DNA from: Escherichia coli
GTDB lineage: Bacteria; Pseudomonadota; Gammaproteobacteria; Enterobacterales; Enterobacteriaceae
DNA length: 64,000 nt
Assembly (NCBI RefSeq): GCF_003334785.1
Contig: NZ_QOWV01000009.1
Direction: 5' to 3' (one strand)
Shown here: positions 38,684 to 50,857 of the stretch, piece after piece
Position numbering within the stretch: the first letter of the stretch is position 1
How the letters are laid out: every line of letters begins with the position of its first letter
The notes under the pieces: generated by a model
What the model saw: only the letters and a program-made list of their open reading frames with translations
What the model was told of the DNA's origin: nothing
The model's database searches: none
Translations under genes and position numbers: made by a program

Positions 38684-40099
38684 TTATTTCAGCCCCAGAG
38701 CGGCTTTCATGGTGTAGAAGAGATCGGTCTGGTCGGTCAGTCCAACAACATTGGCGGCATGCGGGCCATACGCCGCAATACGCAACTGACTGCCGGTATG
38801 TTCTTGTGAATCCTCTTCGGAGTTCCCGTAACTCATCACCATCACTGCGCCATCTTTGGTATTTAGCGCCTGGGTGAGGCCCGGAGCTTTGGTATCCGGC
38901 GCAACAATCTGGCTGGCGTGGGCGTGATCAGCGGTGACTATGACCAGCGTGTTACCCTCCTTTTTAGCGAATTCCAGCGCCCGTTGTACGGCTTCATCGA
39001 GATCGACCGTCTCGCCAATTTGCCCACAAGGATTCGCAGCATGATCCTGTTTATCGATTGACGCACCTTCAACTTGCAGGAAAAAGCCTTTCTCATTTTT
39101 ACTCAACAATTCAATGGCTTTGTCGGTCATCTGCGCCAGGGTTGGTACACTGTCATTACGTTGCGGATTTGGCGTACAGGTGACTGCGGGCTTATCGATA
39201 TTGCCATGGTACGTTGCTTTCGGTCCTAGCCAGCGCACTGGCATATTGCCGTCAGCAAACAGGCCAAGCAGGGGTTTTTGCTGATTCGCTTCCGTCACCG
39301 AATTCAGTGAGGCAGCATCGCTCACCAACTGATAACCACGCGCCTGTGCCTGTTCACGCAGCGTTTTTCCCTGCCATTCACCAGCGGTTGCCGTTTCAGC
39401 AAAGGTTTTTGCGCCGCCGCCAAGCGTAACGTCGGCACGAGCGTTAAGCAGCTGTTCGGTAATCGATCCTTTTCCGCCTTTTTCCAGAGCGTTACCCGGA
39501 CATTTTTCACTGGTCGCGCTCGGACCGTAGCATTTGCGCGAGGTCACATGTGCCACCAGCGCAGCGGGCGTGGCATCCTGCAACTCTGCGGTAGAAACGT
39601 TACCGGTCGCCAGACCTGCGGCTTTTGCCATTTCCAGAATCGTTGGGTGATCTTTTTCGTGAATATCGACGCCCAGCGCGCCGTTATAGGTTTTGACACC
39701 GGTTGACCAGGCGGTTGCTGATGCAGCCGAGTCGGTGACGTAGTCCGGTTTGCCGGTTTTTTTATTCAGCGCATAGTGAGTGTATTGCCCGGTAAGCGGT
39801 AAGGCATCTATACCTTTAAAAAAGCCGCCCGCACCTTCGGCATAATTACGTGCGGCAGTAATTTCCGAGTCCCCCATCCCATCGCCAATCAGCAAAATAA
39901 TATTTTTTGCAGGTTTATCGCTAAGAGAATCACGCAGAGCGGCAGTCTGATCACCCGTTAAACGGCGAGCACCGCCGGGTGCAGTAATATCGCCCTGAGC
40001 AGCCCGGTTTTCCAGAACAGGCATTTCTGGTGTCCGGGCTTTTGTCACAGGGGTAAACAGTAACGGTAAGAGTGCCAGTGCAATAGTGCTTTGTTTCAC
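38684..40099 (-). CDS. phoA: Alkaline phosphatase
   Basis: ORF-track frame 38684-40168; start placed at the GTG giving (M)[50 protein letters not shown]... (471 aa) with the active-site region [12 protein letters not shown]. Confidence 0.97.
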
Positions 40100-40162
40100 T
40101 TTATTTTCTCCATGTACAAATACATTAAAAAATAAAAACAAAGCGACTATAAGTCTCGGCCG

Positions 40163-40179
40163 TGACAACTTTATGACAG
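40163..40179 (-). promoter_or_regulatory. Pho box of the phoA promoter
   Basis: Minus strand reads CTGTCATAAAGTTGTCA, the PhoB-binding direct-repeat pattern, about 65-80 nt upstream of the phoA GTG. Confidence 0.8.
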
Positions 40180-40199
40180 CTGTTGAAAAGATTAACTTT

Positions 40200-40460
40200 T
40201 TACTGACGAGGATGCTTCAATAACTTCTTTACGTAATCGCGCAGCAGCTCCGTATCGTCGTCAGGAATGCTGGCATCGGGCTTTACCTCGTACAGCGCCC
40301 CCTCTACCTGATCAATCAACCGCTGTTGGTCATTTTGCGCCATATTGCGAAGCATTGCAGTGACGATAATCTCCAAAGCTTCTACCTGCGCACACAGTTC
40401 TTTCGACTCTTCTTCTTTTTGGGCAAGCTTAAATAACAACTCAGCAATGAGATTTTTCAT
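40200..40460 (-). CDS. iraP: Anti-adaptor protein IraP
   Basis: 86-aa [43 protein letters not shown]... recognised as IraP. Confidence 0.92.
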
Positions 40461-40922
40461 GTCTGTATTTCCTTATCCAAAGTATGGAGAAGTTAACATT
40501 ATGTTTCACAACTTCATAGTGTCTGGAAGTATTATTTTTATGACAAAGGAAATACTTTGCGCAAATATTTTTTGTTTGATTACCAGCGAAACGTTTCTCT
40601 TATTTAAATAATTACCCACACAAAATATAGGCTTTTAATTATCAACCTTTATTATAAATAAAAGTTATGAAATATATTCTCTTCGTTAACTTATAATTAA
40701 GAGAAAAAAACTCACCGCATGGCCATTTAAGCCAGGAATAAATTAGCTTCCCGTTCATCATTTTTGTGATCTTGCGCACATCTTTGAGATAACGCACTTT
40801 CTTCACCAGTACGTTGCACGCTTTGTCAGCAGAAGATTGCAACAATCTTTCAGAAGGCCGCGAATCCCCCGTTTTGTCGTGGTAATGTATGCACTTTGTG
40901 TTAGACGGGATAGGTTTTTAAG

Positions 40923-42017
40923 ATGGAAAAACTGCGGGTAGGAATCGTTTTTGGTGGTAAATCAGCGGAACATGAAGTGTCTCTGCAATCGGCAAAAAAC
41001 ATTGTCGATGCCATTGATAAAAGTCGCTTCGACGTTGTGCTGCTGGGCATTGATAAACAAGGGCAATGGCACGTCAGCGATGCCAGCAATTATCTGCTAA
41101 ATGCAGACGATCCTGCCCATATTGCGTTGCGCCCTTCGGCGACCAGCCTTGCGCAGGTGCCAGGTAAACATGAGCATCAGCTTATCGACGCGCAAAACGG
41201 TCAGCCGTTGCCGACGGTGGATGTCATTTTCCCGATTGTCCACGGTACGCTGGGCGAAGATGGTTCCTTGCAGGGAATGCTGCGGGTCGCCAATTTACCG
41301 TTTGTAGGTTCTGATGTTCTGGCTTCAGCAGCCTGTATGGACAAAGATGTCACCAAACGTCTGCTACGCGATGCCGGGCTGAACATTGCGCCATTTATTA
41401 CCCTGACGCGCGCCAATCGTCACAACATTAGTTTTGCCGAAGTGGAGTCTAAACTGGGGTTACCACTGTTTGTAAAACCGGCTAATCAGGGCTCTTCTGT
41501 TGGTGTCAGCAAAGTAACCAGTGAAGAACAGTACGCAATTGCCGTCGATCTGGCGTTCGAGTTCGATCATAAAGTGATCGTTGAGCAAGGGATCAAAGGT
41601 CGTGAGATCGAATGCGCAGTTCTGGGCAACGACAATCCGCAAGCCAGCACCTGTGGAGAGATCGTACTCACCAGCGATTTCTATGCCTACGACACCAAGT
41701 ACATTGACGAAGATGGCGCGAAAGTGGTAGTTCCGGCAGCCATTGCGCCAGAAATCAACGATAAGATCCGGGCGATTGCCGTTCAGGCTTATCAAACGTT
41801 GGGATGCGCAGGCATGGCGCGTGTAGACGTGTTTTTAACCCCAGAGAACGAAGTGGTGATCAACGAGATCAACACCCTGCCTGGCTTCACTAATATCAGT
41901 ATGTATCCGAAGCTGTGGCAAGCCAGCGGTCTGGGTTACACCGATCTGATCACACGTTTGATTGAACTGGCGCTGGAGCGTCACGCTGCGGATAACGCAT
42001 TGAAAACCACAATGTAA
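40923..42017 (+). CDS. ddlA: D-alanine--D-alanine ligase A
   Basis: 364-aa ATP-grasp [30 protein letters not shown]... recognised as DdlA. Confidence 0.96.
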
Positions 42018-47406: not shown

Positions 47407-50334
<2,928 letters not shown>

Positions 50335-50857
50335 TTGTCATCCCTCCTCAGGGACGTAATAAGTTGATCCATCAATTATCAATGCATAGAAAACATATTA
50401 TGTTTCGCGCTAACGATTATGCTGCGTTACAGACGAATGGTTCAATTATTCTTTCCCCTAAGTCCGAATGTGGACATATATAATTTATGGAGAAAAACAC
50501 GCATCAAATTCATAAAAGCACAGTATTTCAACATGTTGCAGATAATTTTGTTTTTGAAGCATACGCATAATAAATATCACAAATACAAACCAGATAAATA
50601 TCCTATGAATATGCAACAAAGTTTTAATTATTCAATTTATAGCAGCGCAACCAAACTCCAAAAAATAATAACCAACAGCTATAAATAAAGATTAAAAATA
50701 TTTTCAGTGAATATAAAATTATTGCTGTTTCTATTAAAAAGATGTCCTGGCCTCTCTTCCATTCTCTTCTTGTCAACATCGCGACAACTTTCGTAAAACA
50801 TCCCTACCCTGCTTCAGGTATACTATGCCCCTCGATTCCACAAACATCAGGCAGACC

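Follow-up and report, generated by a model that had tools for sequence, protein, structure and literature searches.

The promoter of iraP is well studied, and passages of the literature that cite Bougdour and Gottesman (2007) and Girard et al. (2018) state that guanosine tetraphosphate (ppGpp) acts directly on it. The DNA considered here is the spacer that separates iraP from the divergently transcribed ddlA in Escherichia coli. It occupies 462 bp, positions 40461-40922, of a stretch of 64,000 nucleotides from contig NZ_QOWV01000009.1 (assembly GCF_003334785.1), which is referred to below as the window. Besides the ppGpp/DksA-activated iraP promoter itself, the closest described systems are the class II promoters of the cyclic AMP (cAMP) receptor protein CRP, of which galP1 is the type; the operator rbsO of the rbsDACBKR operon, which belongs to the LacI/GalR kind; and the relics of gene loss in enterobacteria, in which open reading frames (ORFs) are gone while flanking regulatory DNA is kept and the junctions evolve quickly and accept insertion sequences (ISs).

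The spacer shares features with each of these systems. As a relic of gene loss it has the properties just listed, with the differences that both ORFs appear to have been removed almost exactly and that an internal CRP module has been kept genus-wide. The locus is mostly ordinary, a probable gene-loss scar with standard promoters, to which are added one testable lead, from RbsR through iraP to RpoS, and a case of a stranded binding site. The CRP site and the iraP promoter were previously reported. The gene-loss origin of the spacer and of its CRP site, as well as the RbsR-operator-like box upstream of iraP, appear to be unreported in the literature searched.

The spacer lies between iraP (40200..40460, minus strand) and ddlA (40923..42017, plus strand), and its GC content is 0.342 compared with 0.512 for the whole window. 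Within it, the 142-bp sub-block 40601-40742 has a GC content of only 0.246, and the poorest 200-nt window of the spacer, at 0.24, ranks third from the bottom in the 64 kb, at about the 0.3rd percentile. Nearly all complete E. coli genomes (5423 of 5426) carry the spacer at 97-100% identity, and K-12 MG1655 has no mismatches over 5001 nt around it. The mapped promoter elements and conserved sites lie in 40461-40601 and 40858-40922, which leaves about 255 bp between them. The original prediction, made from the letters of the window, had described a long AT-rich gap between divergent genes that exceeds what two simple promoters require. As an observation this is confirmed, and the remark on length was a fair one given the 255 bp free of mapped promoter elements. 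The interpretation placed on it is partly supported, as described below.

The interval between ddlA and iraP in Enterobacteriaceae

The gap between ddlA and iraP was compared in 80 loci encoding IraP relatives, one genome per species, with ddlA, iraP and phoA located in each. It measures 450-464 bp in all of the Escherichia sampled (E. coli, E. albertii, E. whittamii and further Escherichia species) and in almost all other genera it is about 2.4 kb or about 1.7 kb. Taxa with the larger gaps include Salmonella, Citrobacter amalonaticus, C. sedlakii, Enterobacter, Lelliottia, Leclercia, Kosakonia, Phytobacter, Yokenella, Cedecea, Pluralibacter and Franconibacter, and the gap of about 2.4 kb is found in Salmonella, most Citrobacter, Enterobacter, Kosakonia and more than 20 other genera. 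The large gap encodes two genes on the iraP strand. The product of one, here called ext, is about 230 amino acids (aa) long and matches the Pfam family Extensin-like_C (PF06904, E 1e-53). The other encodes an mdtG-like transporter of the major facilitator superfamily (MFS), about 400 aa long, which scores 543 bits against the NCBIfam MdtG model, just below the cutoff of 571 bits. The MFS gene lies between ddlA and iraP in 63 of the approximately 80 loci, most of which also possess ext, and the same order ddlA-ext-MFS-iraP is present in S. enterica subsp. enterica. Both genes are missing from all of the Escherichia sampled.

Homology between the E. coli spacer and the intact loci was assessed by sensitive blastn and by MAFFT. 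Only blocks confirmed by either method were used, as a global alignment with cheap gap extension gave noise between blocks. The segment 40841-40922 aligns with the spacer between ddlA and ext, with about 85% identity to Salmonella and Citrobacter, and 40743-40782 aligns with the core of the spacer between ext and the MFS gene. From 40461 to about 40700, the sequence aligns with the spacer between the MFS gene and iraP, and the alignment begins no more than about 20 nt from where the MFS gene used to stop. Weak similarity to the region of the ext stop is also present between the blocks derived from the ddlA-ext and ext-MFS spacers.

Based on this evidence, it is very likely that the spacer is a composite produced by gene loss, in which three ancestral intergenic regions were fused after the disappearance of ext and the MFS gene. 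In the ancestral enterobacterial order, ddlA would have faced away from ext, the MFS gene (encoding a paralogue of MdtG) and iraP, the last three being read in the same direction. In the lineage leading to Escherichia, both ORFs would then have been removed almost exactly, so that the three intergenic regions that flanked them now adjoin. The arrangement is considered ancestral, and lost in Escherichia, because it is syntenic across many genera, including outgroups of the clade formed by Escherichia, Salmonella and Citrobacter; by parsimony, loss is the simpler history. The AT-rich middle of the spacer would be decaying relic sequence, tolerant of insertions and deletions and of IS insertion, and 40602-40739 and 40781-40857 are probably relics of this kind. 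In intact genomes, the three spacers total 471-571 nt, and the GC content of the MFS-iraP spacer is 0.34-0.38 in every genus examined. The length of the E. coli spacer and much of its AT-richness therefore seem to be inherited rather than to reflect added regulatory machinery. Regulatory complexity, to which the original prediction had attributed the extra length, is thus not its main cause: three ancestral intergenic regions add up to this length, and conservation is lowest where the AT content is highest.

Some considerations weigh against this account. The direction of change, loss and not gain, depends on parsimony across the genera sampled. The breakpoints are placed approximately, because homology of 40786-40840 and 40701-40742 to the ancestral spacers is weak or undetectable, and for 40701-40739 no homology to the intact loci was found. 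Finally, the conservation of the CRP core, discussed below, implies that some function was retained after the genes were lost.

Gene loss at this position has also been observed in Citrobacter. Three species, Citrobacter sp. NCU1, Awk 4 and R56 (loci L009-L011), are likewise without ext and the MFS gene, but their spacer is 600 bp long and its junctions are unlike those of Escherichia. C. amalonaticus S646 is without the MFS gene only, and its gap contains GC-rich repeats that resemble repetitive extragenic palindromic elements. Gene loss therefore seems to have recurred independently. The features assigned to the E. coli spacer are collected in Table 1.

Table 1. Features assigned within and across the iraP/ddlA spacer, in window coordinates. 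TSS, transcription start site; UTR, untranslated region.
Feature	Coordinates	Strand	Details
iraP Shine-Dalgarno sequence	40468..40474	-	AAGGAAA, from sequence; TAAGGAAAT conserved in 18 Enterobacteriaceae taxa
Proximal iraP promoter	40483..40498	-	TSS 40483 (A), 23 nt before ATG; extended -10 TGtTAACTT 40490-40498
Distal iraP promoter	40527..40565	-	TSS 40527, 67 nt before ATG; -10 TAAAAAT 40534-40540; -35 TTTGCG 40560-40565
Palindromic LacI-family operator-like box, 18 bp	40584..40601		minus-strand sequence AAGAGAAACGTTTCGCTG; centre 40592.5
Putative AT-rich remainder of the ancestral spacer from MFS stop to iraP	40602..40700		aligns just after the MFS stop in Citrobacter and Salmonella; 0.45-0.69 of columns invariant in Escherichia
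Putative deletion junction from MFS loss, including a T7 run	40701..40739		unconstrained, with rapid divergence even among Escherichia species; 0.31 of columns invariant within Escherichia
Putative stranded CRP-dependent promoter of the lost mdtG-like MFS gene	40740..40780	-	CRP site TGTGCgcaagaTCACA 40765-40780; core 40747-40770; -10-like TAATTT 40740-40745
Putative ext gene boundary relic (tail of ddlA-ext spacer and surroundings of former ext stop)	40781..40857		0.56 of columns invariant within Escherichia
ddlA promoter and 5' UTR	40860..40922	+	-35 GCGAAT 40860-40865; extended -10 TGgTAATGT 40880-40888; TSS 40895; 28-nt leader
'Hypothetical protein' WP_001300163.1 of the Prokaryotic Genome Annotation Pipeline (PGAP)	40642..40845	-	67 aa, TTG start; judged a spurious ORF call

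Promoters and the CRP site of the spacer

Published TSSs from two strains were placed on the window. For K-12 MG1655, the Cappable-seq list for mid-log cells in M9-glucose was used for the strand in the iraP direction (PMC4782308). For EDL933, starts were available for eight conditions, namely lysogeny broth (LB), M9, acid and salt, each in exponential and stationary phase (PMC10469882). The K-12 locus has the reverse orientation, with the window position equal to 441846 minus the NC_000913.3 position, and EDL933 coordinates were mapped via locus 2215, whose 460780..460983 corresponds to window 40845..40642.

Two TSSs precede iraP, in agreement with the original prediction that its promoter must lie in the spacer. 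The proximal start is K-12 position 400587 (U00096.2) with a score of 168 (PMC4782308), equivalent to window 40483, and EDL933 position 461142, where it is present in all eight conditions (PMC10469882). Its -10 hexamer ends 7 nt before the TSS, and the motif TGnTAACnT is conserved across genera. The distal start, window 40527, is K-12 position 400543 (U00096.2) with a score of 298 (PMC4782308) and EDL933 position 461098, found in one condition with the bTSSfinder boxes tttgcg/taaaaa (PMC10469882). The block containing this promoter, ATAAAAATAATAC, is conserved across genera. A weak extra site with a score of 3 is listed for the same K-12 strand at 400561 (PMC4782308). A consensus scan had proposed CAGACA/CATAAT as the iraP promoter. 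However, CATAAT was rejected as a -10 element in use because TSS 40483 lies 15 nt after it but 7 nt after the TAACTT hexamer.

On the opposite strand, the ddlA start corresponds to EDL933 position 460730, present in all eight conditions with the boxes gcgaat/taatgt (PMC10469882). The extended -10 ends 7 nt before this TSS, and 0.86 of the columns in the promoter and 5' UTR are invariant within Escherichia. An internal EDL933 start at 40931 on the plus strand, 8 nt inside the ddlA coding sequence, is also present in all eight conditions (PMC10469882). Each flanking gene has a mapped TSS with a plausible -10 element, the promoters have a strong conservation footprint within Escherichia, and the region is a conventional sigma-70 divergent promoter region. 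In the model that these data suggest, transcription of ddlA would depend on an extended -10 promoter 28 nt upstream of its ATG, and iraP would have two promoters, whose TSSs lie at -23 and -67 from its ATG, in a region known to respond to ppGpp and DksA. The gene and the upstream region are those of the ppGpp/DksA-activated iraP promoter, and that region contains both TSSs, 40483 and 40527, either of which may correspond to the published +1. The original prediction had set its expectation of something more against the detection of only two conventional promoters; there are three, and all three are conventional.

The middle of the spacer contains an element of a different nature. A Footprint-seq preprint from 2026 reported ttTGTGAtcttgcGCACAtct at K-12 position 401077, labelled 'ddlA / iraP', as a novel CRP site with a dissociation constant of 1.2 nM in vitro (PMC12871828). 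This site is window 40765-40780 and matches 9 of the 10 positions of TGTGA-N6-TCACA. Of the 63 intact loci, 40 possess a CRP site with at least 9/10 matches located 113-131 nt upstream of the ATG of the MFS gene. In these 40 loci, the motif ATAAAAC/T follows at a fixed distance of 19-20 nt after the CRP site, even where the intervening sequence differs. A CRP site and a -10 element at fixed spacing mark a class-II-like CRP-dependent promoter serving the transporter gene, and the ancestral MFS promoter was probably of class II. E. coli retains the CRP site, the adjoining 22-nt core ATCACAAAAATGATGAACGGGA and the TAATTT hexamer, while the MFS 5' UTR and the gene itself are gone. In intact ext-MFS spacers, such as that of locus L019 (1441-1541), the 5' UTR blocks CGCATCTCTGG and TTGCTAAACT are conserved downstream of the CRP module. 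These blocks may represent a leader element or a second promoter, and in E. coli they have been deleted.

The stranded module is directed toward iraP and has a predicted TSS near 40733, where none is found among the TSSs listed for nine conditions. Compared with class II promoters of the galP1 type, it has a 9/10 consensus site, nanomolar affinity in vitro and a TAnnnT hexamer about 19 nt downstream. In contrast, the hexamer starts 27.5 nt from the centre of the CRP site instead of the approximately 29.5 nt of the canonical -41.5 arrangement, and in E. coli the gene served has been lost. Of the features that define a class II promoter, the high-affinity consensus site is therefore present, whereas a downstream start is absent from the TSSs listed. 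Despite this, 0.77 of the columns of the module are invariant in Escherichia, compared with 0.31-0.56 in the flanks (Fisher p 7e-4). The better conservation of the module indicates that some constraint persists. In the proposed history, the former class II promoter of a lost transporter would thus survive as a high-affinity, constrained CRP site with no detectable start. A weaker companion claim is that selection has kept the site since it still regulates iraP or ddlA. Its centre lies at -122.5 from the ddlA TSS and at -245.5 from the distal iraP TSS, and both are unusual distances for CRP action. The origin proposed here, as the promoter module of a lost mdtG-like gene, accounts for one of the strongest CRP sites of E. 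coli to have been left unassigned. It also cautions that a high-affinity intergenic site need not regulate its present neighbours.

The original prediction also allowed for a small transcript, and the extra AT-rich DNA could alternatively represent an unannotated small RNA (sRNA) or a promoter active under specific conditions. For instance, the stranded CRP promoter might fire during carbon starvation and read about 270 nt into iraP. In vitro, the CRP site ranks with the strongest of the unassigned sites (PMC12871828), its TAnnnT hexamer has been kept at the ancestral spacing, its core has remained conserved within Escherichia after gene loss, and no terminator is predicted between it and iraP. 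However, no listed TSS falls in 40528-40894, near 40733 or elsewhere, on the K-12 iraP strand or on either strand of EDL933 in the eight conditions, which include stationary phase in LB, when cAMP-CRP is active. In K-12 coordinates, the Cappable-seq list for M9 glucose has no TSS between 398889 and 400543 on the iraP-direction strand. Moreover, the hexamer has become GAATTT in E. albertii and in one further Escherichia lineage, and the segment downstream evolves quickly. A scan of 39500-42000 against Rfam at E<=10 returned only chance eukaryotic matches, terminator prediction found none in the spacer, and the ROSE, Rend-seq and Shigella supplements contained nothing on the iraP/ddlA locus. A bacterial sRNA gene should have its own primary 5' end, together with a terminator, a conserved structure or a family match. 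No such 5' end is among the TSSs listed and none of the other properties was found, and an sRNA or additional promoter is unlikely. The spacer appears to encode neither an sRNA nor a protein.

An annotated reading frame and a foreign origin are still less probable. WP_001300163.1, which PGAP calls in the middle of the spacer, is annotated in thousands of RefSeq E. coli genomes, and its ORF is intact in the window, but it is not annotated in K-12. The frame is interrupted or its C-terminus replaced in E. albertii, Escherichia sp. E1V33 and other lineages (stops or frame changes in loci L003, L005, L007 and L008), and in strain Ec-U7 it is cut by IS1. In addition, it starts with TTG, has no NCBIfam match, has no TSS assigned among those listed for EDL933 locus 2215, and runs through both the CRP site and the deletion junction. 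A real small-protein gene here is hardly credible, and a call repeated in thousands of genomes is probably spurious; the spacer thus seems to be without a hidden gene. That the AT-rich segment is horizontally acquired DNA or an islet silenced by H-NS is very improbable as well. AT-rich tracts are typical targets of H-NS, and a GC content of 0.25 over 142 bp is far below the genome average. Nevertheless, the segment aligns with the native MFS-iraP spacer of Citrobacter and Salmonella, which is AT-rich in all of the genera examined, it has no features of mobile elements, and the spacer is all but universal in E. coli, as noted above. H-NS may nonetheless bind the segment. Gene loss from a native enterobacterial locus remains the preferred explanation for the middle of the spacer.

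A palindrome upstream of iraP

In K-12, the rbsD operator rbsO has the sequence CAGCGAAACGTTTCGCTG, and the same sequence was used in the crystal structure of RbsR bound to DNA (bioRxiv 10.1101/2025.04.02.646877). The box upstream of iraP, AAGAGAAACGTTTCGCTG, shares 16 of its 18 positions, with 9/9 in the promoter-proximal half-site. It is the sole match to rbsO in the 64-kb window at <=3 mismatches, where 0.05 would be expected. In 59 of 81 loci, a box with the core AAACGTTTCGCT precedes the iraP ATG by 116-133 nt, while 530 control windows of 400 nt from the same loci contained none at <=3 mismatches. In S. enterica subsp. enterica, CTGAGAAACGTTTCGCTG is found at the same position. In an alignment of 18 taxa, AAACGTTTCG forms the longest near-invariant run and exceeds both -10 elements and the Shine-Dalgarno sequence in conservation. 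Within Escherichia, 17 of the 18 columns of the box (0.94) are invariant compared with 0.44-0.45 in its flanks (Fisher p 6e-5). The box therefore possesses both the inverted repeat with a central CG that matches rbsO and the discrete conserved footprint of an RbsR operator, and it is a candidate for a new LacI-family operator, a known kind of element. Together with the CRP site, it bears out the suggestion in the original prediction that the spacer could contain additional regulatory sites.

The likeness to rbsO lies in the 18-bp inverted repeat, the central CpG and the identical half-site GTTTCGCTG. In contrast, the left half-site of the iraP box is degenerate (AGAGAAAC vs AGCGAAAC), which counts against the account given here. 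The positions differ as well. While rbsO lies near the rbsD start codon and represses, the iraP box is upstream of both promoters, with its centre at -65.5 relative to the distal TSS and at -109.5 relative to the proximal one. It does not overlap the core promoter or lie downstream of it, as a repressor site would. A location upstream of both promoters suits an activator and not simple occlusion, and it is more typical of activation as observed with Cra.

A regulator of the LacI family, with RbsR as the best candidate, would then modulate iraP through this conserved operator. Judged from its sequence, the palindrome suggests direct control by RbsR of IraP and hence of RpoS stability. In its most specific form, the proposal is that RbsR directly activates iraP via an operator 132 nt upstream and that ribose then tunes RpoS stability through the IraP anti-adaptor. 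This is possible but remains tentative, with RbsR the presumed binding protein and activation the presumed effect. In S. Typhimurium, deletion of rbsR and deletion of iraP each result in fast growth on succinate (Succ+) and low RpoS protein (PMC10965054). Transcription of rpoS was unchanged, and the authors proposed an indirect post-transcriptional or post-translational route (PMC10965054). Both the low-RpoS and the Succ+ phenotypes would fit direct activation of iraP by RbsR. No paper linking iraP with RbsR was found in a search of the literature for the two together. If true, the proposal would give a mechanism, so far missing, to the low-RpoS, succinate-positive phenotype of the Salmonella rbsR deletion, and an anti-adaptor hitherto tied to phosphate starvation and ppGpp would gain a sugar input. 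The box thus offers a simple, directly testable hypothesis for the link from RbsR to RpoS.

Alternatively, the palindrome may be the operator of another LacI-family protein such as PurR or Cra, or may have no protein partner, and the link between RbsR and RpoS may run through rbsD mRNA only. The chances of this being the case are about even. The core AAACGTTT is common to PurR and Cra boxes. A preprint bears the title 'Ribose lowers RpoS translation through RbsD mRNA', which, by its title, would be a competing route to the phenotype of the rbsR deletion without iraP. [quoted passage not shown] On the other hand, the invariant half-site GTTTCGCT is the rbsO half-site at all nine positions, whereas the box matches the consensus sequences taken here for PurR (ACGCAAACGTTTGCGT) and Cra (GCTGAAACGTTTCAGC) at only 10/16 positions each. 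The phenotypes that the rbsR and iraP deletions share in Salmonella, with rpoS transcription unchanged (PMC10965054), likewise favor a route through iraP.

Minor features of the spacer and the window

About 200 nt upstream of iraP, the block CATAACTTTTATTTATAAT (40651-40669) is conserved in Escherichia, Citrobacter and Salmonella, and no TSS is found at it among those listed. In Citrobacter, the block resembles an IHF-type site (TATCATAACTTTA), as judged by eye only. A NagC site predicted by FITBAR at 40607-40629 (PMC3098098) was treated as unsupported; it lies in the least conserved AT-rich part and is not conserved. A reading of ATGATGAACGGGAAG and the sequence that follows it as a conserved mini-ORF was rejected, the start codons being absent in C. 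amalonaticus. In strain Ec-U7 (L084), IS1A is inserted near 40680, placing about 0.8 kb between the CRP site and the iraP promoters. This insertion is a natural test of whether the half of the spacer with the CRP site and the half with the iraP promoters need to be adjacent.

The Salmonella loci L013, L017 and L086 are without phoA after iraP, and in L086 psiF directly follows. The ORF of L013 starts two codons upstream of the E. coli start, and the iraP product is 88 aa long in both L013 and L086. Elsewhere in the window, AT-rich islands at about 50250-50750 and 55300-55800 have 200-nt GC minima of 0.23 and 0.22, below that of the iraP/ddlA spacer. Both are apparently intergenic, one beside a yaiT-like ORF and the other upstream of the ORF at 54391-55410. 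The window derives from a K-12-like genome that lacks the IS3 in yaiT, or from a close relative of one: although the 5 kb around iraP match MG1655 at every base, the window contains at 47428-50334 on the minus strand an unbroken ORF of 968 aa, the MG1655 counterpart of which, yaiT, is split by IS3.

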